Below, piece after piece: positions 3,701 through 63,347 of a stretch of 64,000 nucleotides of DNA. Source of the stretch: Heterodontus francisci (taxonomy: Eukaryota); assembly GCF_036365525.1 (NCBI RefSeq), contig NC_090404.1, positions 11,498,550 through 11,562,549 on the forward strand, in the 5' to 3' direction. The notes below the pieces were generated by a model. It was not told the origin of the DNA and ran no database searches. It worked only from the letters and a program-made list of their open reading frames with translations. The translations under genes and the position numbers were made by a program. The stretch's first letter is position 1. Each line of letters begins with the position of its first letter.

Positions 3701-5838
3701 TCGAACAGATCTAGCAGTGCAAAACTGGGCATCCATGAGGCGCTGTGGACCATCAACAGCAGCAGAATTGTACTCAACCACAATCTGTAACCTCATAGCC
3801 CGGCATATCCCCCACTCTACCATAACCAACAAGCCGGGGGATCAATCCTGGTTCAATGAAGAGTGCAGGAGGGCATGCCAGGAGCAGCACCAGGCATACC
3901 TCAGAATGAGGTGTCAACCTGGTGAAGCTACAACCCAGGACTACTTGCATGCCAAACTGCATAAGAAGCATGCGATAGACAGAGCTAAGCAATCCCACAA
4001 CCAACGATTCGATCTAAGCTCTGCATTCCTGCCACATCCAGTCGTGAATGGTTGTGGACAATGAACAATTAGCAGAAGGAGGTAGTTCCACAAATATCCC
4101 CATCCTCAATGATGGGGGAGACCAGAACATCAGTGCAAAAGATATGGCTGAAGCATTTGAAACAATCTTCAGCCAGAAGTACCAAGTGGATGATCCATCT
4201 TGGCCTCCTCCTGAAGTGCCCAGCATCACAGATGCCAGTTTTCAGCCAATTTGATTCACTCCACCTGATATCAAGAAAGGACTGAAGGCACTGGATACTG
4301 CAAAAGCCATGAGCCCTGACAATATTCCGGCAATAGTACTGAAGACCTGTGCTCCAGAACGAGCTGCACCCCTAGCCTAGCTGTTCCAGTACAGTTACAA
4401 CACTGGGATCTAGCCAGCAATGTGGAAAATTGTCCAGGTATGACCTGCACACAAAAAGCAGGCCAATTTCCACCCCATCAGTCTACTTTCATTCCTCAGT
4501 AAAGTGATGGAAGATGTCATTGACAGTGCTATCAAGCGGCACTTGCTTCGCAATAACCTGCTCAGTGACGCTCAGTTGGAGTTCCGCCAGGGCCACACAG
4601 CTCCAAACCTCATTACAGCCCTGATTCAAACATGGACAAAAGAGCTGAACTCAAGAGGTGAGGTGAGAGTGACTGCCCTTGTCATCAAAGCAGCATTTGA
4701 CCGAGTATGGCATCAAGGAGCCCTAGCAAAACTGAAGTCAATGGGAATCATGGGGAAAACTCTCCGCTGGTTGGAGTCATACCTAGCTCAAAGGAAGATG
4801 GTTGTGGTTGTTGGAGGTCAATCATCTCAGCTCCAGGACATCACTGCAGGAGTTCCTCAGGGTAGTGTCCTAGGCCCAACCAACTTCAGCTGCTTCATCA
4901 ATGACCTTCCTTCAATCACAAGGTCAGAAATGGGGATGTTCGCTGATGATTGTGCAATGTTCAGCACCATTCGTGACTCCTCAGATACTGAAGCAGTCCA
5001 TGTAGAAAAGCAGCAAGACCTGGACAATATCCAGGCTTGGGCTGATAAGTGGCAAGTAACATTTGCGCCACACAAGTGCCAGGCAATGTCCATCTCCAAC
5101 AAGAGAGAATCTAACCATCTCCCCTTGACATTCAATGGCATTACAATTGCTGAATCCCCCAATATCAACATCCTAGGGGCTACCATTGACCAGAAACTGA
5201 ACTGGAGTAGCCATATAAATACCGTGGCTACAAGAGCAGGTCAGGAGCTAGGAATCCTGCGGTGAGTAACTCACCTCCTGACTCCCCAAAGCCTGTCCAC
5301 GATCTACAACGCACAAGTCAGGAGTGTAATGGAATACTGTCCACTTGCCTGGATGGGTGCAGCTCCAACAACACTCAAGAAGCTCAACACCATCCAGGAC
5401 AAAGCAGCCTGCTTGATTGGCACCCTATCTACAAACATTCACTCCCCCCACCACCAAAGCACAGTTGGAGCAGTGTGTACCACCTACAAGATGCACTGCA
5501 GCAATGCACCAAGACTCCTTAGACAGCACCTTCCAAACCCGCGACCTCTACCAACTAGAAGGACAAGGGCAGCAAATGCATGGGAACACCACCACCTGCA
5601 AGTTCCCCTCCAAGTCACACACCATCCTGACTTGGAGCTATATTGCCAATCCTTCACTGTTACTGGGTCAAAATCCTGGAACTCCCTTCCGAACAGCACT
5701 GTGGGTGTACCTACCCCACATGGACTGCAGCGGTTCAAGAAGGCAGCTCACCACCACCTTCTCAAGGGCAATTAGGGATGGGCAATAAATGCTGGCCTGG
5801 CCAGTGATGCCCACATCCCATGAATGAATGAAAAAAAA
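3701..5838 (+). mobile_element. CR1/L2-group LINE (second family, 'B'), disrupted RT and 3' end
   Basis: WFNEECRRA, TAL.IKAAFDRVWH, GVPQGSVLGP, MFADD motifs; tail 'aataaatgctggcc...cccatgaatgaatgaaaaaaaa'. Confidence 0.85.
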
Positions 5839-9789: not shown

Positions 9790-10094
9790 AGTATTGGAAG
9801 CGGAAGATTTGCAGACAGGAAATTCAAACCAATCACATCAAGATCTGACAGTCGCTTGCTACATCAAGACCTGAATGTCAAATATTTGTCTGTTGCTGTG
9901 TGCAGGAAAAGATTTCAGAAATCAGTGTGACTGGTAAAGCACCGAGGTACGCACACCCGAGTGAGAGTGTTCCAGTGCGCTGACTGAACAAACTTCACGC
10001 CATTCACAACAGGGAGAGGCTGTACACCTGTTCTGTGTGCGGACAAGGCTTCAAGTGAGCGTGCAACCTGGAGAGGCACAAGGACGCCCGCACC

Positions 10095-10769
10095 ACGGAG
10101 AAACCGTGGAAATGCAGGGACTGCGGGAAGAGATTCAATTACCCATCCCAGCTGGAAACGCATCGACACAGTCACACTGGGGAGAGGCCGTTCACCTCCT
10201 GCGCGTGTGGGAAGGGATTCACTCAGTTATCTTCTCTGCTGGCACACCAATGTCTTCACACTGGGGAGAGGCCATTCACTTGCTCCACGTGTGGAAAACG
10301 ATTCACTCAATCGGGAAATCTTCTGACACACCAGCGGGTTCACACTGGGGAGAGGCCATTCATCTGTTCCGTGTGCGGAAAGGGATTCACTCAGTCATCT
10401 GCTCTGCTGACACACCAGCAAGTTCACTCCAGTGACAGACCTTTTAAATGTTCTGACTGTGAAAAGAGCTTTAAAAGCAGAAATGATCTGCTGAAACACC
10501 AGCGCACTCACACTGGGGAGAGACCGTTCACCTGCTCTGTGTGTGGGAAGGGATCCACTCAGTTATCCCACCTGCTCTCACACCAGCTAGTTCACTCCAG
10601 TAACAGACCTTTTAAATGTTCTGACTGTGAGAAGAGCTTTAAAAGCAGAAACTACTTGATGCAACACCAGCGAATTCACACTGGAGAGAGACCGTTCACC
10701 TGCTCTGTGTGTGGGAACAGATTCAATAATTCATCCAACCTGCTGAGACACCAGCGAATTCACAAGTGA
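10095..10769 (+). CDS. C2H2 ZNF array A, 8 fingers (finger 2 lacks normal Cys spacing), open frame starting at ACG
   Basis: [33 protein letters not shown]... to HQRIHK-stop; in frame with the ORF-track entry 10371-10769. Confidence 0.7.
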
Positions 10770-13507: not shown

Positions 13508-14007
13508 CTCTCCCCAGTGTGAACTCCTTGGTCTGTCAGCAGGGTGGATGACTGAGTAAATCTTTTCACACTCATGGAGCTGGTGAACGGTCTTTCCTCA
13601 GAGTAAGTGCGTTGGTGATTCAGCAGATTTTTTTTTTAAAGGGCTTCTCACAGTCATAAATTTTAAAGGGCCTCTTAGCAGAGTGAACAAGTTGATGTGT
13701 CAGAAGGTGGGATAACTGATTGTATTTATTCTCACACACACAGTAGTTGAATGGCCTCTCGTAGATGTGAATTTGCTGGTGTGTCAGCAGATCCTTTCTG
13801 CTTTTAAATCTGTTCTCACAATCAGAACATTTAAAAGGCCTCTTATCAGTAAGTTGATGTGTCAGAAGGTGGGATAACAGTGAATCCCTTCCAGCAGACG
13901 GCACAGGTGACCAGCCTCTCCCCGGTGTGACTGATCCAATTAGTTTCCAGTTTGGGCGGGTAACTGAATCCCTTCCCACAGTCCCCACATTACCACAGAT
14001 TCTCCAT
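13508..14007 (-). pseudogene. C2H2 ZNF pseudogene
   Basis: Family start 'cgcaccATGgag' at 14007, then stop and frameshifts; [22 protein letters not shown]. Confidence 0.8.
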
Positions 14008-14029
14008 GGTGCGGGTTTGGAGTGCATCA

Positions 14030-18569: not shown

Positions 18570-19910
18570 GAACATAGGAAGATAGGAACAGGAGTAGGCC
18601 ATTCAGCCCCTCGAGCCTGTCCCACCATTCAATGAGATCATGGCTGATCCGCGGCCTAACTCCATATACCTGCCTTTGGCCCATATCCTTTAATATCTTT
18701 GCTTAACAAAAATCTATCTCAGATTTAAAATTAACAACTGTTCTAGCTTCAACTGCTGTTTGTGGGAGAGAGTTCCAAACCTCTACCACCCTTTGCGTGA
18801 AGAAGTGCTTCCTAACATCTCTCCTGAACGGTCTGGTCCTAATTTTTAGACTATGCCCCCTAGTTTTAGAACCTCCAACCAGTGGAAATAGTTTATCTTT
18901 ATCTAGCCTGTCTTTTCCTGTTAATATCTTGAAGATTTCAATCAGATCACCCCTTAACCGTCTAAATTTTAGCGAAAACAGGCCTAATTTGTGTAATCTC
19001 TCCTCGTAACTTAACCCCTGTAGTCCAAGTATCATTTTTGTAAACCTACGTTGCACTCCCACCAAGGTCAATATATCCTTCCTCGGGTGTGGTGCCCAGA
19101 ACTGCTCACAGTACTCCAAGTGGGATCTAACCAGGGTTTTGTACAGCTGCAGCATAACCTCTGTGTCTTTATATTCCAATCCTCTAGATATAAAGGCTAG
19201 CATTCCAATAGCCTTTTTGATTATTTTCTGCACTTGCTCGTGGCATTTTAAAGATCTATGAACCTGAACCACCACCCCCCCCCCCCCCCCCAAGTCTCTT
19301 TGAACATCCACTGTATTTAACCTCTTCCCATTTAGAAAGTACACTGCTCTATCCTTTTTTGGTCCAAAATAGATAACCTCACACTTGCCCGCATTGAAAT
19401 CCATCTGCCACAGTTTTGCCCATTCACCTAGTCTGTCAATATCTCTTTGCAATTTTATGCAATCATCTAGACTGTCTACAATGCTGCCTAACTTTGTATC
19501 ATCAGCAAATTTGGATTTATGACTTACTATGCCATCATCCAAGTCGTTAATGAATAATGTGAATAATTGAGACCCCAACACAGATCCCTGCGGGACACCA
19601 CTAGTCACATCCTGCCAATCGGAGTATTTACCCATTATCCCCACTCTCTTTCACCTACCATTCAACCAACTTCCTAACCATGTCAATAATGTCAACTCCA
19701 TGGGCTTCTACCTTAGTTAACAGTCTCTTATGTGGGACTTTATCAAATGCCTTCTGGAAGTCCATATAAATAACATCTAGGGAACTCTGAAAGACTATAG
19801 TTAGGGCATCTATAATGTGCTCCCCTACTTCCTTCAACACCCTCGGATGGAAACCGCCAGGTCCTGGGGATTTCTCACTCTTTAGTTCCATTAATTTCCT
19901 TGTTCCTGAT
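18570..19910 (-). mobile_element. CR1 LINE RT to 3' end with internal deletions
   Basis: 313-aa ORF with GVPQGSVLG, KFADDTKLG, HFFTQRVVEVWNSLP; KSPGP motif. Confidence 0.9.
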
Positions 19911-25900: not shown

Positions 25901-26220
25901 GATATTGCAAGGGGAGGATTTGCGAACAGGAAACTCAAATCAAACATCACATCAAGATGTGACAGAATCACTTGATTCATCAGGGCCTGAATATCTTTGG
26001 CCTTTGAAGGAGAAAATTTGTCTGTGGGAAAAGCTGAGACACATCCGAGTTAAAGTGAGAGTGTTCCAGTCCACTGACTGTGGAAAGAGCTTTAACCAGT
26101 TACACAGACTGAAAAAAACATCAAACCATTCACAGCGGGGAGAAACTGTACACGTTTTGTGTGTGTGGCTGAGGCTTCAACTGATCAGCCAACCTGCAGA
26201 GACACAAAGGCACTTGCACC

Positions 26221-26895
26221 ACGGAGAAACTGTGGAAATGTGGGGAATGTGGGAAGGGATTCAGTTTCCCGTCCGAACTGGAAACTCATCAGCGCAATCA
26301 CACTGGGGAGAGGCCGTTCACCTGCTCCGTGTGTGAGAAGGGATTCACCAAATCATCCTATCTTGTGAGACACCAGCGCATTCACACTGAGGAGAGGCCG
26401 TTCACTTGCTCAGTTTGTGGCAAGGGATTTAATCAGTCGTCCACCCTGCTGATACACCAGCGAGTTCATACGAGAGAGAAGCCGTTCATCTGCTCCAGAT
26501 GTGGGAAGAGATTTAAGCAATCATCCCACCTTTTGACACACCACCGCGTTCATATCGAGGAGAGGCCATTCACCTGCTCCAAATGTGGGAAGGGATTTAA
26601 GCAATCGGCCCACCTTTTGATACATCATCGGGTTCACACCAGGGAGAGCCCATTCACCTGCTCAGTGTGTGGGAAGGGATTCACTCAGTCATCCAACCTG
26701 CTGAGACACCAGTGCATTCACACTGGGGAGAGGCCGTTCACCTGCTCTGTGTGTGGGAAGGGATTCAGTCAATCAACCCACCTGCTGAGACACCAGTGCA
26801 TTCACACTGGGGAGAGGCCGTTCACCTGCTCTGTGTGTGGGAAGGGATTCAGTCAATCAACCCACCTGCTGAGACACCAGCAAGTTCATAAGTGA
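26221..26895 (+). CDS. C2H2 ZNF array B, 8 fingers, open frame starting at ACG, no in-frame ATG
   Basis: [33 protein letters not shown]... HQQVHK-stop. Confidence 0.75.
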
Positions 26896-29263: not shown

Positions 29264-29762
29264 TCACTTGTGAACTCGCTGGTGTTTCAGCAGATCGCCT
29301 GACTGAGTGAACCCCTTCCCACACAGCAGGTGAACGGCCTCTCCCCAGTGCGACTGCGTCGATGAGTTTCCAGTTTAGATGGGCTTTTGAATCTCTTCCC
29401 ACAGTCCCCACATTTCCACAGTTTCTCCATGATGTGGGTATCCTTGTGTCTCTCCAGGTTGGATGATCAATTCAAACCTCGTCCACACACACGACCTGTG
29501 TACCGTTTCTCCTGACTGTGAATGGTAACATGTTTTCTCAGGCAGTGTAACTGTTTAAAGCTCTTTCCACAGTCAGTGCACTGGAACACTCTCACTCAGG
29601 TGTGTGTGTGTCTCGGTGCTTTTCCAGTCACAGACAGAACAGACAAACATTTCTCCTACCACATTCCAAGGACAATGATATCCTGATCAATCGAGTGGCT
29701 GTCAGATCTCGATGTGATGTTTGGTGTGAGTTTGCTGTGTGTAAATCCTTCCCTTTTAAATC
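29264..29762 (-). pseudogene. ZNF pseudogene (leader + 2 fingers, frameshifted)
   Basis: Acceptor at 29763, ATG at 29430 [14 protein letters not shown]..., terminal HQRVHK-stop. Confidence 0.8.
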
Positions 29763-37365: not shown

Positions 37366-37748
37366 AATGCTGTGTGAATTCCTTTTACAGGGGATTGGAA
37401 GGGGAGGATTTGCAGATGGGAAGATGAAACCAAACATCAGATGAAGATCTGACAGTCACTCAATCCATCAGGACCTGAATATCATCAGCCTTTGAACGTG
37501 GAAGGAGAAATGTTTGTTCTGTTTATGGGGAAAGATTTCAAACATCAGTGTGACTGGAAAAGCACCAAGACACACACACCCGAGTGAGAGTGTTCCAGTG
37601 CACTGACTGTGGAACGAGCTTTAACCAGTTACTCAGCATGAAAAAACATCGCACCACTCACAGTGGGGAGAAACTGGACACGTGTTCTGTGTATGGACGA
37701 GGCTTCAACTGATCATCCAAACTGGAGAGACACAAGGATCCCCGCACC

Positions 37749-38843
37749 ATGGAGAAACCGTGGAAATGTGGAGATTGTGGGAAGGGATTCAGTTACCCAT
37801 CTGAACTGGAAATTCATCGACGCAGTCACACTGGGGAGAGGCCGTTTACCTGCTCTGTGTGTGGGAAGGGATTCACTCTGTCATCCGGTCTCTATACACA
37901 TCAGCGAATTCACACTGGAGAGAGGCCGTTCACTTGCCTTAAATGTGGGAAGGGATTTAATGTTTTATCAACCCTCCGAACGCACCAGCGGGTTCACTCT
38001 GAAAAGAGACCATTTAAATGTTCTGACTGTGAGAAAAGCTTTAAAAGCTCAAAGAATTTACTGACACACGAACGTACTCACACTGGGGAGAGGCCGTTCA
38101 CTTGCTCTGTGTGTGGGAAGGGATTCACACAGTCAGCCCACCTCCTGACCCACCGACTTGTTCACACTGATAACAGACCTTTTAAATGTTTTGACTGTGA
38201 GAAGACCTTTAAAAGTAAAAAGGATTTACTGAACCACCAACGAAGTCACACTGGGGAGAGGCCATTCACCTGCTCCGTGTGTGGAAAGGGATTCATTCAT
38301 TCATCCAGTTTCTATACACATCAACGAGTTCATACTGGAGAGAGGCCATTCATCTGCCTTGAGTGTGGGAAGGGATTTTATGCTTTACCACACCTCCGGA
38401 CACACCAGCGGGTTCACTCTGATAAGAGACCGTTTAAATGTTCTGACTGTGAGAAGAGATTTAAATGCAAAAACAATCTACTGAAACACCAACGCACTCA
38501 CACTGGGGAGAGGCCATTCACTTGCTCAGTGTGTGGGAAGGGATTCACTCAGTCATCCCACCTGCAGACGCACCAACTTGTTCACACTGATAAGAGACCT
38601 TTGAAATGTTCTGACTGTGAGAAGAGATTTAAATGTAAAAGCGATCTGATAAAACACCAACGTACTCATACTGGGGAGAGACAGTTCAGCTGCACTGAAT
38701 GTGGGCAGAAATTCACTGCTTCAACCTACCTTCTGAAACACCAGAGAGTTCACACGGGGGAGAGACCGTTCACCTGCTCTGTGTGTGGAAAGAGATTCAC
38801 TCAGTCAGGCAATCTGCTGAAACATCAGCGAGTTCACAAGTGA
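37749..38843 (+). CDS. C2H2 ZNF protein C, 364 aa, 13 fingers, ATG start, no effector domain visible
   Basis: Intact [17 protein letters not shown]... with TGERPF linkers; strong Kozak accATGg. Confidence 0.9.
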   Translation: MEKPWKCGDCGKGFSYPSELEIHRRSHTGERPFTCSVCGKGFTLSSGLYTHQRIHTGERPFTCLKCGKGFNVLSTLRTHQRVHSEKRPFKCSDCEKSFKSSKNLLTHERTHTGERPFTCSVCGKGFTQSAHLLTHRLVHTDNRPFKCFDCEKTFKSKKDLLNHQRSHTGERPFTCSVCGKGFIHSSSFYTHQRVHTGERPFICLECGKGFYALPHLRTHQRVHSDKRPFKCSDCEKRFKCKNNLLKHQRTHTGERPFTCSVCGKGFTQSSHLQTHQLVHTDKRPLKCSDCEKRFKCKSDLIKHQRTHTGERQFSCTECGQKFTASTYLLKHQRVHTGERPFTCSVCGKRFTQSGNLLKHQRVHK

Positions 38844-46386: not shown

Positions 46387-47148
46387 CTATGCAGTGTGAA
46401 CTCGCTGGTGTGTCAGAAGTTTGAATGCCCAAGTGAATCCCTTCCCACACACGGAGCAGGTGAACTGTCTCGGCCCAGTGTGAACTCGCTGGTGTGCACT
46501 GAGGTTGTGTGATCGCCTGAATCTCTTCCCACAGTGACAGCAACTGAACGGTCTCTCATCAGAGTGAACTCGCTGGTGCCGAATCAATTCTGTGGAGCTT
46601 TTAAAACCCTTCCGACAGTCAGAGCATTGATAAGGTCGCTCCTCAGTGTGAACCCGTACATGCGCCAGCAGGTTAGATAAAGCAGCGAATTGCTTCCCAC
46701 ACTCAGTACAGGTGAATGGTCTCTCCCCAGTGTGAACTCGCTGGTGTGTCTGCAGGCTCGATAAATTTGTAAATCCTTTCCCACATATGGGGCAGGAGAG
46801 CGGCCTCTCCCTAGTGTGAACTCGTTGGTGTGTCTGAAGGTTGGATGAATTGATAAATCCCTTCCCACATTCGGAGCAGATGAACGGCCTCTCCCCGGTG
46901 TGAACATGCTGGTGATTCAGCAGGTCAGTTGATTCTGTAAATCCTTTCCCACAAACAGAGCAAGTGAATGGCTTCTTCCTGGTGTGTGCGCGCTGGTGTA
47001 ACAGCAGACTGGATGACTGAGTGAATCCCTTCCCGCATACGGAGCAGGTGAACGGCCTCTCCCCAGTGTGACTGCGCCGATGAATTTCCAGCTGGGATGG
47101 GTAATTGAATCCCTTCCCACAGTCCTGACATTTCCACGGTTTCTCCGT
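46387..47148 (-). CDS. C2H2 ZNF array D, 9 fingers, open frame starting at ACG, no in-frame ATG (mostly missed by the ORF track)
   Basis: Manual translation [27 protein letters not shown]... HQRVHTA-stop, 253 codons without a stop. Confidence 0.8.
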   Translation of the reverse strand, partial: TEKPWKCQDCGKGFNYPSQLEIHRRSHTGERPFTCSVCGKGFTQSSSLLLHQRAHTRKKPFTCSVCGKGFTESTDLLNHQHVHTGERPFICSECGKGFINSSNLQTHQRVHTRERPLSCPICGKGFTNLSSLQTHQRVHTGERPFTCTECGKQFAALSNLLAHVRVHTEERPYQCSDCRKGFKSSTELIRHQRVHSDERPFSCCHCGKRFRRSHNLSAHQRVHTGPRQFTCSVCGKGFTWAFKLLTHQRVHTA

Positions 47149-47509
47149 GCTGCGGGTGTCCTTGTGTCTCTCCAGGTTGGATGATCAGTTGAAGCCTCAT
47201 CCAAACACAGCACACGTGTATAGCTTCTCCCTGATGTGCACAGGGCGATGTTTTTTCAGGCTGTGTAACTGGTTAAAGCTCTTTCCACAGTCAGTGCACT
47301 GGAACACTCTCTCTCGGGTGTGTGTGTCTCAGTGCTTTTCCAGTCACACTGATGTTTGAAATCTTTTCCCACAGGCAGAACAAACAAACATTTTGCCTTC
47401 TACATTACAGGATGTTGTTGTTCAGGTCCTGATGAATCGAGTGACTGCTAGATCTTGATATGATGTTGGATTTGAGTTTGTTGTCTATAAATTCTTATCT
47501 TCTAATACC

Positions 47510-47700
47510 CTGTAAAAAGGAGTTTATAAAAGTCATCACTGTCAATACAGAATAGAAATTCAGAACAGACAATTCGAGTTTCGATGGAACATTTTTAACT
47601 CTCTTGTTCCCCCAAAGCTGTAAATCCCCGTCCAACACACTCTTCCCTCCTCCCTGTGCTGAAACCCAAACCCATTGCACCATTTCTTTCCTCCACTCCC
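47510..47700 (-). promoter_or_regulatory. Partial module Z intron and acceptor of ZNF D
   Basis: 'ctcctttttacAG|ggtattagaag'; homologous to 25720-25900. Confidence 0.6.
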
Positions 47701-48007
47701 AGAAGTGATTTATGAGAATGGTGCATGGATTCGTGACTTTATTTATGTGGAGAGACTGGAGAAGCTGGGGTTGTTCTCCTTACAGCAGAGAAGGTAAAGA
47801 GTAAATTTGATAGGGGTGTACAAATCATGAACAGTTTTGATCATTTTTCCTTATTTACTGTATTTTCAGTGGCAGAGTGTTGGGTTCGTCAGGGATGACC
47901 AAACTTTAGAATTCCAGGCTGGCCTTCTCTGATCAGCCGAACATTTTCAAGGCATCAGTCACTCTGAATTATACACTCTACTTATTCTCTCTGCTATTTA
48001 AGAAAGA

Positions 48008-48265
48008 TGTCTGATATAAACCAATCCCACAGTCACTGACACCAATCTCCCACTGTCTGATATAAACCAACCCCACAGTCACTGACACCAATCTCCCACT
48101 GTCTGATATAAACCAACTCCACTGTAACTGACAACAATCTCCTGTCTGATATAAACCAATCCCACAGTCACTGACACCAATCTCCTCCTGCCTGATATAA
48201 ACCAACCCCACAGTCACTGACACCAATCTCCACCTGTCTGATATAAACCAACCCCACAGTCACTG
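48008..48265 (+). repeat. ~46-bp minisatellite, ~5.7 units
   Basis: Unit tgtctgatataaaccaa(t/c)cccacagtcactgacaccaatctcc(n3). Confidence 0.9.
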
Positions 48266-51157
48266 GCAGGGGAATGGAAACCAGAGAGTGAGCTCAGATT
48301 GGAGGGAAGCAAAACTGGTAACTTGTCAGGGGCTTGGGAACCAGAGAGGAATACCAAGATGTACAGAATACTATGAGAAATAGATAGCACTAGAGTAGGG
48401 AATAGTAAGTTATTAGGTGGGATCAGAGCAAGAGAGAAATTACTAAAGTCTTAATCAGGTTTAATATGCATGTATGTGAATGCATGGAGTGTTGTTAATA
48501 AGATTGGTGAGGTACAGGCGCAGAAATACCATGATGAAATATGATGTTGTGACTATAATAGACACCTGGCACAAAAAAGAGCAGGACTGGGTGTGAAATG
48601 TTCCTGGTGCTTAGGAAAGATAGAAAAGGGAAAAAAGCAGAAAGGCAAGCATTGCAGTGCTGGAGAAAAAGGATGTCCCAGAGGCGTCGAGGACAGAATC
48701 AAGTTGGCTAGAGTTTAGGAACAAAAAAAGGTGCGGTTACATTGCTTGGTGTTGTCTATAGGCCACCAGCTAGTGGGAAAGATGTGGAGGAACAAATTTG
48801 CAAGCAAATTACAGAGAGGTGCAAAATTATAGGGTAGTTATAATGGGGGACTAACCATAGACTGGGATAGTAGTAGTGTAAAGGGCAATGAGGGGCAAGA
48901 GTTCCTAGAATGCATTCAGGAAAGTTTTCTACAACTGTATGTTTCTAGTCCAACGAGAAAGGAGGCACTGCTAGAACTGGTTCTTGGGAATGAGGTGGAC
49001 CAAGTATCAGTAGGAAATCAATTAGGGGACTCTGATCATTGTATCATAAGGTTTAGGCTGATATAGAAAAGGACAAAGAACAACCCAGAATAAGAATAAT
49101 TAATTGGGGGAATCCAACTTCAATGGGGTAAGCATGGAGTTGAGGCAAATAAATTGGAGTGAAAGGTTGGCAGGAAAAACAGTAGTGGAACACTGGGCTA
49201 CCTTCAAAGAGGAGATAGTTCAGGCACAGTCAAGGTATGTTCCCTCAAAGGGGAAAGGTAGAGCAAACAAATCCAGAGTTCCCTGGATGACAAAAGAGGT
49301 AGCGATTAAGATAAAGAAAATGTGTGCTTATGACAGATGCCAGGTAGAAAATTCTATTGAGAACTTGGCTGAATATAGAAGGTCCAGAGGGGAAGTGTAA
49401 AAGCAAATAAGAGAAGCGAAGAGAGAGCATGAAAAGAGACTGACAGCTAACATTAAAGGGAATCCCAAAGTTTTCGATAGACTGATAAATAGTAAAAGGG
49501 TTGTAAAAGGAGAAGTGAGGCCAATTAGGGACCATAAAGGGGACTTACACAACCCAAGCAATGGTGAAACAGGAGGTAATCCAGACACTAGAAAGGTGTA
49601 AAGTTGATAAAAACGACATATTTAAAAGGCTGTCTGTGTTTAAAGTGGATAAAGCACCAGGGCCGGAAGAGATGCATCCAAGGATAAGGAGGGAAGTGAG
49701 GGTGGAAATCGCAGAGGCACTGACCATAATTTTTCAGTCTTCCTTAGACTCTCCAGAGGACTGGAGAATTGCAAACATTACACCTTTGTTCAAGAAGGGT
49801 GCAACGATAAGTCCAGCAACTACAGGCCAGTCAGTTAAACGTCGGTAGTGGGAAAACTTCTAGAAATAATCATTTGGTACAAAATTAATAGTCACATGGA
49901 CAAATATGGATTAATTAAGGAAAGCCAGCACAGATTTCTTAAAGGAAAATCATGTTTAACTAACTTGCTGGAGTTTTTTGAAGAGAGAACAGGGAGGGTT
50001 GATGAGGGCAATGCTATTGAGGTGGTGTACATGGACTTTCAAAAGGCGTTTGATACAGTGCCACCCAACAGACTTAAGAGCAAGGTTATAGCTCATGGAA
50101 TAGAAAGGATGGTAGTAACATGGATAGAGAATTGACTGAGTGACAGGAAATAAAGCGTAGTGGTTAATGGATGTTTTTCAGGCCAGAGGAAGGTTTGTAG
50201 TGGAGTTCCCCAGAGGTCAACGTTGGGACCCTTGCTTTTCCCGATATATATTAATGACCTCGACCTTGGTGTACAGGGCACAAATTCAAAGTTTGCAGAT
50301 GATATGAAACTTGGAAGCACTGTGAACTGTAAGGATAGTGTAGAACTTCAAAAGGACACAGCCAAGTTGGTGGAATGGGCAGACAGGTGGCAGATGAAAT
50401 TCAATGCAGAGAAATGTGAAGTGATTCATTTTGGTAGGAAGAACATGGAATATAAAATAAAAGGTACAATTCTAAAGGAGGTGCAGGTTCAGAGGGACCT
50501 GATTGTATATGTAATAAGTCATTGAAGATGGCAGGACAGATTGAAAGAGCGGTTAATAAAGCATACAGTATCCTGGGCTTTATTAATAGGGACAGAGAGT
50601 ACAAAAACAAGGAAGTTATGTTGAACTTGTATAAGACACTCGTTCGGCCTCAGCTGGAGTGTCGTATCCAGTTCTGGACGCCACACTTTAGGAAAGATGC
50701 GGGGGCGTTAGAAAGAGTACAGAAAATATTCATAAGAATGGTTCCCGGGATGAGGAACTTCAGTTATGAAAATAGATTGGACAAGTTAGGACTGTTTTCC
50801 TTGAAGAGAAGGCTGAGAGCTGATTTGATAGCGGTGTTCAAAATCATGAGGGGTCTGGACAGAGTAGATAAAGAGAAACAGTTCCCATTCATGAAAAGAT
50901 CGAAAACGAGAGGACACAGATGTAAAGTATTTGGTGAAAGAAACAAAAGTGACAGGAGGATAAACTTTCACACAGCGAGTGGTTAAGGTTTGGAATGCAC
51001 TGCCTAAGAAAGTGGTGGAGGCAGGTTCAATTGAAGCATTCAAAAGGGAATTAGACAGTTATATGAAAAGGAAGAATGAATTGCTCTTTTGGAGAGCCGG
51101 TGTGGATATGATGGGCTGAATGGCCTCCTTTTGCACTGTAACAATTCTGTGATTCTG
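48266..51157 (+). mobile_element. CR1 LINE, near-complete but disrupted ORF2 (APE + RT) and 3' end
   Basis: CMYVNAWS, GVVYRPP, DSDH, KAPGP, YMDFQKAFD, KFADD, tail ttctgtgattctga. Confidence 0.9.
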
Positions 51158-51734
51158 AATCTCCTCCTGTCTGAGATAAACTAACCCTATAGGCCCAGAA
51201 AGATTAAAGTCATCCCATTACTTGGACTGGATTTATCCAGCCCATACCAAGGGGACTGCTATACCTGACAGGAGGGATAATATTTTGGGACTCTTGATTC
51301 TCCATTAATTCCCATTCCCCTTCTTTCTGGTGGATAATGGAGGTGCCACTGTGTATAATGTGCAAGTTAGAAAGAATTGTCAGCAAGGATTGATCAGCAT
51401 TTTCTAACTGGAGAGGTTACTCAGCGAAACTTTTTCAGACACTGAATTGTAGATTTTGTACCAAATCCTATTTCGGATTGAAGTCAGACTTCATAATATT
51501 GTTATAAACGGATTTGTGATGAGAATTCTGAATTCAGGGGCATGATCACAGACTGCGGCTCTTAAAGGGACACTGCAGCCCCGAGCTCACAGTCAGCTAT
51601 ATATGCAGAATTGTAAACTCCAGCCCAGTTATACGGTTAATAATATCAGCAGAAACAAACCTGCTCGGTCAGAATGAATATGAATCAGTCCTGTGATTAA
51701 CAGTCGCAATAACAGCAGAATGCAACTCCTACAG

Positions 51735-52325
51735 TCACTTATGAACTTGTTGGTGTGTCAGCAGGTGGGATAGCTGAGTGAATCCCTTCTCACACACTGA
51801 ACAGGTGAACGGCCTCTCCTGAGTGTGAATTCGCTGATGTGTCAGAAGGTTGGATGATGTTGTGAATCCTTTCTCACACACGGAGCAGATGAACGGCCTC
51901 TCCCCAGTGTGAACACGCTGGTGTGTCAGAAGGTTCGATGAATTAGTGAATCTTTTTTCACACACAGAGCAGATGAACGGCCTTTCCCCAGTGTGAACTC
52001 GCTGGTGTGTCAGCAGTTGGGATAACTGAGTGAATCCTTTCCCGCAAACAGAGCAAGTGAATGGCTTCTCCCCAGTGTGAACTCGCTGGTGTACCAGTAG
52101 CTCGGACGACTGAGTGAATCCCTTTCCACAGACACGACAGATGAAAGGTCTCTCCCCAGTGTGAAATCGCTGGTGTCTCAACAGAGTGGTTGACTGAGTG
52201 AATCCCTTTCCACACAAGGAGCAGGTGAACGGCTTCTCCCCAGTATGACTGCGTCGATGAATTTCCAGCAGGGATGGATAATTGAATCCCTTCCCACAGT
52301 CCCCACATTTACATGGTTTCTCTGT
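51735..52325 (-). CDS. C2H2 ZNF array E, 7 fingers, open frame, ACA at the family start position, no in-frame ATG
   Basis: [27 protein letters not shown]... HQQVHK-stop. Confidence 0.7.
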
Positions 52326-52579
52326 GGTGCTTGTGCCCTTGTGCCTCTCCAGGTTGGAAAATCAGTTTAAGTCTTGCCCAGACACAGAACACATGTACTT
52401 TTTTTTCCCGCACTGTGATCGTACAATGAGTTTTTCAAGCTGTGTAACTGCTTAAAATATTTCTCCTTCCATCTTCAAAGGCCAATGATATTCAGATCCT
52501 GATGAAATGAGTTTATCTGTGATATCTTGACATGTTTAGTTTTAAGTTTCCCATTCTGAAATCCTCCCCTTCTAATACC

Positions 52580-53200
52580 CTATAAAAGGAGTTTACAACA
52601 GTCATCACTGTAAGTACAGGATAGAAATTCAGAACAGACAATTCTAGTTTCTATGGAACATATTTTCCTCTCTTGTTTTCCCCAAAGCTGTAAATCCCCG
52701 TCCCGCACATTCTCCCTCCTCCCTGTGCTAAAATCCAAAAACATCGACTCTGGCTGGGTTCAGTTCTCCAGCCTCTGTGTGCAGAGTGAGAATCAAATCA
52801 ATGAGTCAATGATTTTCTCTCCTGGTCATTGGGACCTGAAGCCCCGCCTACTCTGTGTCGTCACCAAGATGGTCGCGCATGCGCTCTGCTCCCCGCTCAA
52901 ACAAAATGGTGGTTTTAGAGATAGATGGGCCCGTTCCCGGGAAAAAGCCCCGGAACTGGAAACGCGGGACCTGGAGATTATTATTCGGGGCTTGCGGCCA
53001 TCACCAGGTGTTTCTGAAGCCTTGCCGCCCACCCGCCGGCTCCATTCCTCGCCTGCGTCCCGCCGACTCTCACCCGCTGCGAAAGCGTCTCCAGCATTCG
53101 CACAGCTCTGATCAAAGTGACACTGCGCATGCTCCAGCCACAGTCTAACTCTGCGTCTGCGTACTGGGCTCCCTGGGAATTCCGGCAGCCGCAAGGGAAG
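52580..53200 (-). promoter_or_regulatory. Module Z copy (complete), upstream of ZNF E
   Basis: GCATGCGCAGT, donor GCGG|GTGAGA ~53074, CGCATGCGC, acceptor 'ccttttatAG' at 52580. Confidence 0.65.
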
Positions 53201-53204
53201 GTTC

Positions 53205-53930
53205 AGCGACTTCGGCCATCTTTGTAAGGGGTGGCTAAAGGGTAAAAGTAAGCCAGCAGTAAAATGAAAATATACCTGCATAATATTTGCCCAAGAAGAA
53301 CTACAAATGTGGTCCATAACAACTGGGAAAGAATAAAGACTTTTTTTTTACAAAATAAGTCATATTGTCAAACGTCTTACAGGACGTGGCTTCCATCTTT
53401 CTGTGGAGCAACGCAGCTTCATTTCGCCTAGCTGAATGTCCTTGGAGCGGACGTTCCCTGAGCAAAGATGGGGGCGGGGTTTGCAAATCACCGAGGCCGT
53501 CTGACGTTTCAGCCCCAACCACAGCCGGTGCGCATGCGCGAGTGACGGTTGTCGGGGGCGCGTGGTGGATTTTTTTTCGAATCGAAGTTTGAGCGGGAAA
53601 CGGTTAACGGTCGCCGGCGTTGCCATGGCTGCGGGGGCGGGGCTTGGTAACGGCGCGTGCCGGCGCAGGTGGGCCAACGAGCTCGAGCTGAGCAGCAGCA
53701 GGTGAGCGGCCAGGAGCAAGGCCGCGGAGAGAGCCTGGGGCTCGAGTGGGAGGCGGTAGCTGGCAGGCCCCTCTCCTGGGGAGGACACCACTCTGACTGG
53801 GGCCACCCAAAACACTCAAACACGGGGATTTTAATGTCACAGCCTTTGAGGGGGAGGCAATGGGTGCGAGAAAACCTGGTTGATAATTACTGAGCTTGGA
53901 TGGGTTTTGGTGTCTCCAGTGGGTGGGCTT
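53205..53930 (+). promoter_or_regulatory. CpG-island module X copy 3 with micro-exon (ATG 53625, donor after 53701)
   Basis: MAAGAGLGNGACRRRWANELELSSS-AG|GTGAGC; TGCGCATGCGC, GCGGGAAA, AACGGTTAACGG, ACTACA. Confidence 0.65.
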
Positions 53931-58363: not shown

Positions 58364-59560
<1,197 letters not shown>

Positions 59561-60584: not shown

Positions 60585-63096
60585 AAAGAAACAAAGAACA
60601 AAGATAATTACAGCACAGGAACAGGCCCTTCGGCCCTCCAAGCCTGCGCCGATCCAGATCCTCTATCTAAACATGTCGCCTATTTTCTAAGCTTCTGTAT
60701 CTCTTTTCTTCCTGCCCATTCATGTATCTGTCTAGATACATCTTAAAAGACTCCATCGTGCCCGCATCTACCACCTCCGCTGGCAATGCGTTCCAGGTGC
60801 CCACCACCCTCTGCGTAAAGAACTTTCCACGCATATCCCCCCTAAACTTTTCCCCTTTCACTTTGAACTCGTGTCCTCTAGTAATTGAAACCCCCACTCT
60901 GGGAAAAAGCTTCTTGCTATCCACCCTGTCTATACCTCTCATGATTTTGTACACCTCAATCAGGTCCCCCCTCAACCTCCGTCTTTCTAATGAAAATAAT
61001 CCTAATCTACTCAACCTCTCTTCATAGCTAGCGCCCTCCATACCAGGCAACATCCTGGTGAACCTCCTCTGCACCCTTTCCAAAGCATCCACATCCTTTT
61101 GATAATGTGGCGACCAGAACTGTACGCAGTATTCCAAATGTGGCCGAACCAAAGTCCTATACAACTGTAACATGACCTGCCAACTCTTGTACTCAATGCC
61201 CCGTCCGATGAAGGAAAGCATGCCGTATGCCTTCTTGACCACTCTATTTACCTGCGTTGCCACCTTCAGGGAACAGTGGACCTGAACACCCAAATCTCTC
61301 TGGACATCAATTTTCCCCAGGACTTTTCCATTTACTGTATAGTTCACTCTTGAATTGGATCTTCCAAAATGCATCACCTCGTATTTGCCCTGATTGAACT
61401 CCATCTGCCATTTCTCTGCCCAACTCTCCAATCTATCTATATTCTGCTGTATTCTCTGACAGTCCCCTTCACTATCTGCTACTCCACCAATCTTAGTGTC
61501 GTCTGCAAATTTGCTAATCAGTCCACCTATTCTTTCCTCCAAATCATTAATGTATATCACAAACAACAGTGGTCCCAGCACGGATCCCTGTGGAACACCA
61601 CTGGTCACACGTCTCCATTTTGAGAAACTCCCTTCTACTGCTACTCTCTGTCTCCTGTTGCCCAGCCAGTTCTTTATCCATCTAGCTAGTACACCTTGGA
61701 CCCCAAGCGCCTTCACTTTCTCCATCAGCCTGCCATGGGGAACCTTATCAAACGCCTTACTGAAGTCCATGTATATGACATCGACAGCCCTTCCCTCATC
61801 AATCAACTTTGTCACTTCCTCAAAGAATTCTATTAAGTTGGTTAGACATGACCTTCCCTGCACAAAACCATGTTGCCTATCACTGATGAGCCCATTTTCT
61901 TCCAAATGGGAATAGATCCTATCCCTCAGTATCTTCTCCAGCAGCTTCCCTACCACTGACGTCAGGCTCACCGGTCTATAATTACCTGGATTATCCCTGC
62001 TACCCTTCTTAAACAAGGGGACAACATTAGCAATTCTCCAGTCCTCCGGGACCTCACCCGTGTTTAAGGATGCTGCAAAGATATCTGTTAAGGCCCCAGC
62101 TATTTCCTCTCTCGCTTCCCTCAGTAACCTGGGATAGATCCCATCCGGACCTGGGGACTTGTCCACCTTAATGCCCTTTAGAATACCCAACACTTCCTCC
62201 CTCCTTATGCCGACTTGACCTAGAGTAATCAAACATCTGTTCCTAACCTCAACATCCGTCATGTCCCTCTCCTCGGTGAATACCGATGCAAAGTACTCGT
62301 TTAGAATCTCACCCATTTTCTCTGAGTCCAAGCATAACATTCCTCCTTTGTCCTTTAGTGGGCCAATCCTTTCTCTAGTTACCCTCTTTCTCCTTATATA
62401 TGAATAAAAGGCTTTGGAATTTTCCTTAACCCTGTTTGCTAAAGATATTTCATGACCCCTTTTAGCCCTCTTAATTCCTCGTTTCAGATTGGTCCTACAT
62501 TCCCGATATTCTTTCAAAGCTTCGTCTTTCATCAGCCGCCTAGACCTTATGTATGCTTCCTTTTTCCTCTTAGCTAGTCTCACAATTTCACCTGTCATCC
62601 ATGGTTCCCTAATCTTGCCATTTCTATCCCTCATTTTCACAGGAACATGTCTCTCCTGCACGCTAATCAACCTCTCTTTAAAAGCCTCCCACATATCACA
62701 TGTGGATTTACCTTCAAACAGCTGCTCCCAATCTACATTTCCCAGCTCCTGCCGAATTTTGGTATAGTTGGCCTTCCCCCAATTTAGCACTCTTCCTTTA
62801 GGACCACTCTCGTCTTTGTCCATGAGTATTTTAAAGCTTACGGAATTGTGATCACTATTCCCAAAGTAGTCCCCTACTGAAACTTCAACAACCTGGCCGG
62901 GCTCATTCCCCAACACCAGGTCCAGTATGGCCCCTTCCCGAGTTGGACTATTTACATACTGCTCTAGAAAACCCTCCTGGATGCTCCTTACAAATTCTGC
63001 TCCATCTGGACCTCTAACATTAAGCGAATCCCAGTCAATGTTGGGAAAATTAAAATCTCCTATCACCACCACCCTGTTGCTCCTACATCTTTCCAT
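60585..63096 (-). mobile_element. Young 5'-truncated CR1 LINE
   Basis: Uninterrupted ~810-codon ORF2, 3' UTR 'ggagggccgaagggcctgttcctgtgctgta' and (TCTTTGT)-type tail. Confidence 0.95.
60667..63096 (-). CDS. CR1 ORF2 (C-terminal APE + complete RT), N-terminally truncated
   Basis: GDFN, LDLVL, SDH, KSPGPDG, YRPVSL, QHGF, DFSKAFD, GVPQGSVLGP, FADD. Confidence 0.9.
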   Translation of the reverse strand: MERCRSNRVVVIGDFNFPNIDWDSLNVRGPDGAEFVRSIQEGFLEQYVNSPTREGAILDLVLGNEPGQVVEVSVGDYFGNSDHNSVSFKILMDKDESGPKGRVLNWGKANYTKIRQELGNVDWEQLFEGKSTCDMWEAFKERLISVQERHVPVKMRDRNGKIREPWMTGEIVRLAKRKKEAYIRSRRLMKDEALKEYRECRTNLKRGIKRAKRGHEISLANRVKENSKAFYSYIRRKRVTRERIGPLKDKGGMLCLDSEKMGEILNEYFASVFTEERDMTDVEVRNRCLITLGQVGIRREEVLGILKGIKVDKSPGPDGIYPRLLREAREEIAGALTDIFAASLNTGEVPEDWRIANVVPLFKKGSRDNPGNYRPVSLTSVVGKLLEKILRDRIYSHLEENGLISDRQHGFVQGRSCLTNLIEFFEEVTKLIDEGRAVDVIYMDFSKAFDKVPHGRLMEKVKALGVQGVLARWIKNWLGNRRQRVAVEGSFSKWRRVTSGVPQGSVLGPLLFVIYINDLEERIGGLISKFADDTKIGGVADSEGDCQRIQQNIDRLESWAEKWQMEFNQGKYEVMHFGRSNSRVNYTVNGKVLGKIDVQRDLGVQVHCSLKVATQVNRVVKKAYGMLSFIGRGIEYKSWQVMLQLYRTLVRPHLEYCVQFWSPHYQKDVDALERVQRRFTRMLPGMEGASYEERLSRLGLFSLERRRLRGDLIEVYKIMRGIDRVDSKKLFPRVGVSITRGHEFKVKGEKFRGDMRGKFFTQRVVGTWNALPAEVVDAGTMESFKMYLDRYMNGQEEKRYRSLENRRHV

Positions 63097-63347
63097 GGAA
63101 TCCATCATTAAGAAAGTAGCAGCAGAACATTTAGAAATTCATAATGCAATCAAGCAGAGTCAGCATAGTTTTATGAAAAGGAAATCGTGTTTGACAGATT
63201 TATTAGAGTTGAGGATGGAGCGAGCAGGGTGTATAAAGGGAACCAGTAGATGTAGTGTATTTGGATTTCGAAAAGGCATTTGATAAAGTGCCACTTAAAA
63301 GTTTACTACGCAAGAGCTCATAGTGTTGAGGGTAATATATTAGCACA

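Follow-up and report, generated by a model that had tools for sequence, protein, structure and literature searches.

A probable family-wide CUG start in AUG-less zinc-finger arrays of a shark genome

Initiation at an in-frame CUG as well as at an AUG produces pairs of proteoforms from MYC, BAG1, FGF2 and PTEN. Genes that start exclusively at a non-AUG codon are described as single cases, namely EIF4G2/DAP5 (GUG), TEAD1 (AUU) and POLGARF (CUG) (PMC9082881, PMC5666671). Zinc-finger (ZNF) open frames have been counted across animals in a study whose main text uses the term 'start codon' 0 times (PMC10547256), and ZNF clusters have been noted in catshark in another (PMC11979771). No report of a CUG-started zinc-finger family was found in the literature on non-AUG starts or on shark zinc fingers, in a search that covered few subscription papers.

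Here we describe a family of shark C2H2 zinc-finger genes, many of whose intact members have no AUG from which the whole array could be read. The analysis began with a window (the whole stretch of DNA under study, 64,000 nucleotides, G000:C34:11498550-11562549) in a host genome of 6.0 Gb. A CTG and its context, 27 nt upstream of a codon that is either ACG or ATG in most copies, are selectively retained only in copies without the downstream ATG. Comparison of paralogous sequences makes it probable that the family as a whole would start at this CUG and that AUG would have been gained recurrently through CpG decay, giving a compensatory pattern across paralogues.

A first-pass annotation of the window had described arrays that are fully open and lack an AUG start, and all of its coordinates and codons were found in the sequence. 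In six copies an in-frame TGA, at 10056 (+), 26182 (+), 29469 (-), 37710 (+), 47187 (-) and 52364 (-), precedes by exactly 39 nt the codon that we call codon 10, which is ACG at 10095, 26221 and 47148, ATG at 37749 and 29430, and ACA at 52325, and is followed by GAG AAA. This constant spacing is non-random because the copies are homologous paralogues. All six also carry, four codons past the TGA, an in-frame CTG with A at -3.

The coding frame of array D from the predicted CUG (46387..47175, -) comprises 262 codons and a stop and encodes nine C2H2 fingers. Its CTG, the putative start codon, lies at 47173..47175 (-) in the context TCCAAC-CTG-GAG, and its codon 10, an ACG that contains a CpG and is replaced by ATG in roughly half of the paralogues, at 47146..47148 (-). 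The TGA, a relic stop that is CGA in an AUG-started sister subfamily, occupies 47185..47187 (-), and the 5' leader of the exon, made up of a linker and three decayed fingers, occupies 47176..47509 (-). Read from the CTG, array D has no Met in frame, matches PF00096 with an E value of 5e-58 and shows nine fingers by regular expression; it is a tandem C2H2 array with at least five PF00096 fingers in one frame and conserved linkers. A Pfam scan from the CTG returned finger-type families only, with no KRAB, SCAN, BTB or FiNZ effector domain, and since just 13 residues precede the first Cys there is no room for an N-terminal domain. After the stop that ends the frame, remnants of about 1.5 more fingers follow in another frame, and D therefore falls outside the strict intact class defined below.

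Array E, read from its CTG at 52352 (51735..52352, -), has seven fingers, ACA at codon 10 and no in-frame ATG, and belongs to an exon at 52579-51661 (-). On the plus strand, array A (10068..10769, from the CTG; ACG at 10095) has seven canonical fingers, array B (26194..26895, from the CTG; ACG at 26221) has eight and a C at +4, and array C (37722..38843) keeps the CTG, has ATG at 37749 and carries thirteen. These finger counts agree with the annotation, as do the absence of an in-frame ATG from B, D and E and its occurrence in A only at residue 200 of the stop-to-stop frame. Three further copies are broken: one at 29288..29469 (-), with both CTG (29457) and ATG (29430); one at 13537..14016 (-), with ATG at 14007 and its leader lost; and a sister-subfamily copy at 58376..59540 (+), with CGA and AGG at the TGA and codon-10 sites. 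Both ATG copies at 29.4 kb and 14.0 kb are thus broken. The window also holds LINE-type reverse-transcriptase frames at 60667-63138 (-), 4444-5265 (+) and 18703-19650 (-), the first of them open for 823 codons and including an endonuclease domain.

Beyond the window, exact finger-1 patterns gave 259 and 294 genome matches, those listed lying mostly on C34, C22 and C32. In a contiguous stretch of 464 kb the second of these patterns caught just 2 of the 28 copies present. The arrays belong to a large shark C2H2 family, which on this count probably numbers more than 1,000 copies. Every gene consists of a single coding exon, whose strong acceptor lies about 330 nt ahead of the CTG. Copies were gathered from tiles, finger-1 pattern matches and leader pattern matches. 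Rows removed were 8 internal-finger matches, 6 duplicate or internal rows, 14 sister-type or internal rows and 2 further internal fingers; 9 copies were collapsed at 95 % identity, and L235 is not in the set. The final set of 255 copies, classed by codon 10, contains 64 intact non-ATG, 71 intact ATG and 120 broken copies under a strict rule; a looser rule required at least five open fingers with any tail. Part of the sample was picked by codon 10, and a separate subset was picked without regard to the leader. In this unbiased subset the intact copies divide into 34 ATG, 17 ACG, 6 ACA and 4 other, an AUG-less share of about 44 % (27/61).

In the sister subfamily the TGA site reads CGA, codon 10 is GGG and the start is an ordinary ATG (MEGKS-like). 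Its five intact members (L187, L133, L162, L150 and L124), which combine this ATG with a first finger that is still whole, would be useful as outgroup and expression control, and sister-type database proteins occur in Cetorhinus, Scyliorhinus and Mustelus (P0008, P0003, P0134). Two amplifications were also seen in the main family. At G000:C34 10.85-10.90 Mb an intact ACG copy was recently amplified in tandem, giving five copies about 12.3 kb apart. About 26 near-identical copies at G000:C34 34-43 Mb, C66 and C1097 have TTG at the start site (24 with ATG and 2 with ACG at codon 10); all six examined carry a stop three codons into the array, as in an amplified dead clade.

We scored a start as usable where CTG or ATG stands at the CTG site, in frame and with no stop ahead of finger 1. 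A usable start is present in 63/64 strictly intact non-ATG copies versus 53/71 intact ATG copies (p=3.6e-5), and in 75/76 versus 60/78 copies with at least five open fingers (p=2.9e-5). The contrast is found in the unbiased subset (27/27 versus 26/34, p=0.007), holds at finger cut-offs from 4 to 8, and persists when GTG and TTG are also scored as usable. By itself the replication set gave 20/21 versus 15/20 (p=0.093), one of the 20 being later dropped as an internal finger, and an independent-pairs test on the supported branches of a tree that is star-like in appearance gave 8 pairs with a median p of 0.125. Dead non-ATG copies have a usable start in 47/55 cases, fewer than the 75/76 of their counterparts with at least five fingers (p=0.004) and somewhat above the 28/38 of dead ATG copies (p=0.19). 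It had been expected in advance that non-ATG places without a CTG would mostly be broken; six of seven such places were recovered and five of the six were broken, the sixth having TTG and 6 fingers. The sole exception among intact non-ATG copies is L212, a 6-finger ACG copy with TTG. The 18 losses of the CTG site in ATG copies comprise TTG, CTA, CAA, CAG, GTG, deletions, frameshifts and a TAG behind the CTG, and together with the one non-ATG loss they amount to 18 changes on the tree.

Selection at this site acts on the codon and not on the residue, because synonymous Leu changes are nearly absent from non-ATG copies (1/64, versus 10/71 in ATG copies) and in the only two non-ATG copies where the amino acid does change, CTG has become ATG. 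When four-base windows were compared between the groups (n=150), those at +1 and +2 differed most (p=1.7e-4 and 2.3e-3, uncorrected). All 64 intact non-ATG copies share T+2 and G+3, and the AG at +5/+6 varies. Between the CTG and finger 1, intact non-ATG copies show no frameshift or stop and one 9-nt deletion, whereas ATG copies show 2 stops as well as frameshifting deletions. The core context (-4, -3, +4) is kept in 61/64 non-ATG versus 48/71 ATG copies and the whole context CAAC-CUG-GA in 51/64 versus 40/71; array B, with C at +4, is one of two context exceptions among the 64. The predicted optimum non-AUG context given in one source is (C/A)(A/G)(C/A)(A/C/G)CUGGAU, which CAAC-CUG-GA fits everywhere except at +6 (PMC9082881). 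A near-cognate codon and its context are in this sense conserved beyond the amino acid.

The peptide behind the CTG is free to vary: no amino-acid constraint was found on the 8 codons after it, and the 9-residue extension from the CTG to codon 10 has a pN/pS of 0.9-1.4. An open in-frame upstream ATG exists in only 1/64 intact non-ATG copies, and a Met after codon 10 is absent from 18/64, lies within 40 codons in 7/64 and comes later in the rest. These counts support the annotators' view that the AUG-less arrays need a non-AUG start. AUG is not depleted inside non-ATG arrays (p=0.11). A hairpin of 5-6 bp at about +26 appeared in 4 of 5 folds (z between -0.25 and -2.0), and its arms (codon 10 and the CCG/CCA codon) show no covariation (p=0.47).

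At codon 10 itself, recurrent conversion of ACG by CpG deamination, as originally suggested, is borne out by 43 parsimony changes among the 135 intact copies, with ATG and non-ATG states mixed across the tree. ACG is likely ancestral, since ATG and ACA are its two deamination products. The ratio of TG to CA at this codon is 73:14 in intact copies (76:18 in the discovery set) versus 85:73 at three other leader CpGs (p=1.7e-6), an excess of TG that points to selection for AUG.

The TGA that first drew attention to these copies has no evident role: in 9/64 intact non-ATG copies its position holds no stop codon. It is also not specially conserved, being changed in 11/64 copies like the neighbouring triplets, and on this evidence reads as a dispensable relic. 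The sequence upstream of it is broken, as reported, with indels down to -15 and stops at -24 (15/64) and -45 (6/64), and the conserved in-frame TGA with an open frame upstream that marks selenoproteins or stop readthrough was not found. Upstream ATGs number about three per copy (202 in the 64 intact non-ATG copies and 254 in the 71 intact ATG copies). Those of array D lie at 47405 (1 codon), at 47391 (15 codons, in the finger frame) and at 47200, the last in weak context and out of frame, overlapping the CTG. An upstream ATG whose frame overlaps the CTG, as in D, occurs in 14/64 intact non-ATG copies, and overlapping upstream ATGs at -25 show no depletion in CUG-only copies (10/64 versus 13/71).

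The transcript runs that cover the window are assembled contigs, and that they are RNA is a guess. In these probable RNA contigs a GT-AG intron (47510..51660, -) connects arrays E and D, running from the 3' UTR of the former (51661, 74 nt past E's stop) to the exon of the latter (acceptor at 47509), which places two intact AUG-less arrays on one apparent transcript. The joint was found in 4/4 runs from 2 studies and 2 organisms; as evidence for a bicistronic mRNA it consists of contigs spanning the junction and not of a whole transcript. Among the 45 3' ends listed, such a donor seems to be peculiar to E. A tandem repeat of units of about 40-45 nt occupies 48000-48270 (-) within the intron. 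Upstream of E, a putative non-coding first exon (53074..53230, -; GT donor at 53073) lies in a CpG island with motifs that we take to be YY1-like and NRF1-like, and no junction from this exon to E is among the joints listed. There is no CpG island between E and D, and D therefore probably depends on the 53 kb promoter. Two CpG islands lie in the region 52800-53800 of the window, which resembles a promoter acting in both directions, towards E and towards the 58.5 kb copy; islands or motifs of this kind recur at 6.4-7.0, 31.2-32.2 and 35.1 kb. Nonsense-mediated decay follows a 50-nt rule, and we speculate that the E-D junction would expose translated E to it. The 693 nt of E from CTG to donor contain two AUGs, versus a mean of 5.7 per 700 nt, and with so few D might be readable by leaky scanning, a speculation from one case.

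Several other explanations of the AUG-less arrays can be weighed against a CUG start. That ACG is the main start, with ATG copies strong and ACA copies null, is unlikely. Such a start would account for the A at -3 and G at +4 kept around codon 10 (the -3 purine in 44/44 ACG copies), for the preference of ATG over ACA, and for the counts of ATG, ACG and ACA, which are 78, 54 and 16 in long arrays versus 38, 33 and 16 in dead ones. However, 20/64 intact non-ATG copies have no ACG (14 ACA, 2 GTG, and one each of GCG, AGG, ACC and GCT), and because all 20 retain the CTG, copies can do without ACG, and ACA is no null state. ACG copies keep the CTG as well (41 CTG, 2 ATG and 1 TTG among 44 intact), which an ACG start does not require. 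The weak, strong and null switch at a single codon that had been envisaged is thus not supported; as the CTG, to which the annotation gave only a brief mention, is the site under constraint, the switch is between CUG only and CUG plus AUG, and ACG may be an added second start. Still less likely is that an upstream exon supplies the AUG, through splicing either to a point behind the TGA or, in frame, to the usual acceptor. AG dinucleotides do follow the CTG (GAG AGA, CAC AAG) and the database models P0052 and P0010 attach upstream exons, but the AG at +5/+6 is the part that varies while T+2 and G+3 do not, and the usual acceptor precedes stops and frameshifts. The X1 and X2 contigs span E from the acceptor as far as the ACA, inclusive, with no joint and 0 differences. 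The cryptic splice behind the TGA that had been proposed also finds no counterpart among the 10 leader joints listed from four runs of probable RNA contigs, none of which has splice-type ends, and no loose ends lie between TGA and ACG among the 24 listed, bar one 21-letter X10 piece.

Lower again we place the possibility that AUG-less copies are young, undecayed pseudogenes of ATG genes, in line with which many copies are dead, the non-ATG ones slightly more often (intact in 65/138 versus 71/119, p=0.046). Counted against the commonest codon per column and with no tree, pN/pS in the framework of later fingers is 0.199 in non-ATG and 0.196 in ATG copies (482 and 602 fingers) and in finger 1 it is 0.31 in both, as under purifying selection, which upholds the claim of coding constraint on AUG-less arrays. 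In the leader it is 1.02 and 0.88, and this part reads as three decayed fingers evolving neutrally. Leaders of the two intact groups are equally diverged (0.153 versus 0.145) and the AUG-less copies are therefore not younger; behind these indel-rich leaders intact non-ATG arrays nevertheless average 9.4 open fingers. At Pro+76 and Ser+79, which lie outside the definition of intactness, synonymous to nonsynonymous changes stand at 14:0 and 19:1, versus 21:23 and 33:22 in broken copies. The possibility raised at the outset that ACG and ACA copies are recent pseudogenes evolving neutrally is contradicted by both the pN/pS values and the equal leader divergence. C-to-U editing, or readthrough of the TGA (as a stop or selenocysteine codon) from an upstream AUG, is more improbable yet. 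ACG differs from AUG by a single C-to-U change and the TGA is in frame, but editing, another of the annotation's proposals, cannot give AUG from the 20 non-ACG codons, and the E contigs are identical to the DNA (none of the contigs listed over the ACG is D-specific). Against readthrough stand the broken frame upstream, with its indels and stops, the single copy with an open in-frame upstream ATG, and the 9/64 without a stop at the TGA site. Least likely of all is a role of the CTGG word as a binding site in DNA or RNA: the gain of an ATG 27 nt away would then not relax its retention, its changes would not all be to ATG, and the frame behind the CTG would not be preserved.

We therefore favor a CUG start in working zinc-finger genes. 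The ancestor would have had three extra N-terminal fingers, lost to TGA stops. Ribosomes would pass, or re-initiate after, about three short upstream frames and would initiate at the CUG by ordinary scanning, with Met-tRNAi and at a low rate. Deamination of the ACG CpG would repeatedly yield ATG, which selection would favor; the new AUG would make the CUG dispensable and probably raise output. Deamination on the other strand would give ACA, harmless because the CUG remains. For array D, initiation at 47175 likely gives the predicted protein M-ERHKDTR(S/T)T-EKPWKC..., consisting of fingers only. More tentative, and in our judgment rather doubtful, is the wider proposal that in sharks a transcription-factor family numbering in the hundreds depends on a CUG inherited from a decayed finger, that one methyl-CpG nine codons further on serves as an evolutionary dosage switch by which individual paralogues are upgraded to AUG, and that leakiness of the CUG allows two different zinc-finger proteins to be made from the spliced E-D mRNA.

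Among the database matches listed, the nearest proteins with a name are zinc-finger models from sharks, most of them labelled Heterodontus francisci, and protein searches for breadth returned few shark matches (12; 1075, mostly generic, of which 120 were listed; and 3). Models P0110 and P0066 begin with MERHKD, exactly at the CTG site, and the Chiloscyllium model P0007 starts with MEKPWKC. The partial Scyliorhinus model P0133, LERRQDIRTVEKPWKC, has Leu at the start site and no Met, a comparison at the protein level only. X8 and X10 contigs (organisms C and E) align over TGA-CTG-ACG with the same ACG/ATG mix at 47147, and the CTG positions do not figure among the 40 of 73 difference rows listed. 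The CUG arrangement probably extends beyond one genus. Models P0013, P0036, P0048, P0050, P0052 and P0066 (970-1520 residues) contain chained arrays or added upstream exons and are likely misannotations of the shark zinc-finger family; AUG-based annotation misbuilds these AUG-less genes.

In genome organization the family is like the lineage-specific tandem expansions of KRAB-ZNF and cyprinid FiNZ-ZNF genes (PMC10547256) and the catshark ZNF clusters (PMC11979771): its arrays of at least five fingers are clustered and fast-duplicating, with TGERP linkers and many dead copies. Unlike KRAB-ZNF and FiNZ-ZNF, the predicted D protein has no effector domain. ATG copies that keep the CTG (53/71) resemble MYC, BAG1, FGF2 and PTEN in having an in-frame CUG upstream of the AUG. 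They differ in that the shark AUG form is probably derived and recurrent, the extension between the two codons is unconstrained and the CUG decays once an AUG exists. The paralogues constitute a natural mutagenesis series, in which AUG was gained dozens of times, apparently independently, and a usable CUG was lost 19 times; this series could be used to study context rules, the effects of upstream frames and start-codon strength as a means of setting transcription-factor dose. The AUG-less members share with EIF4G2/DAP5, TEAD1 and POLGARF the lack of a usable AUG in the main frame and a conserved near-cognate codon with C-4, A-3 and G+4. Those are single, tested genes, whereas the start that we infer here is common to hundreds of paralogues and would derive from a Leu codon inside a decayed finger. 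Exclusive non-AUG starts have so far been a handful of single genes; a family with such a large AUG-less share would multiply the cases and would show a CUG start to be able to sustain a family that is both large and fast-evolving.
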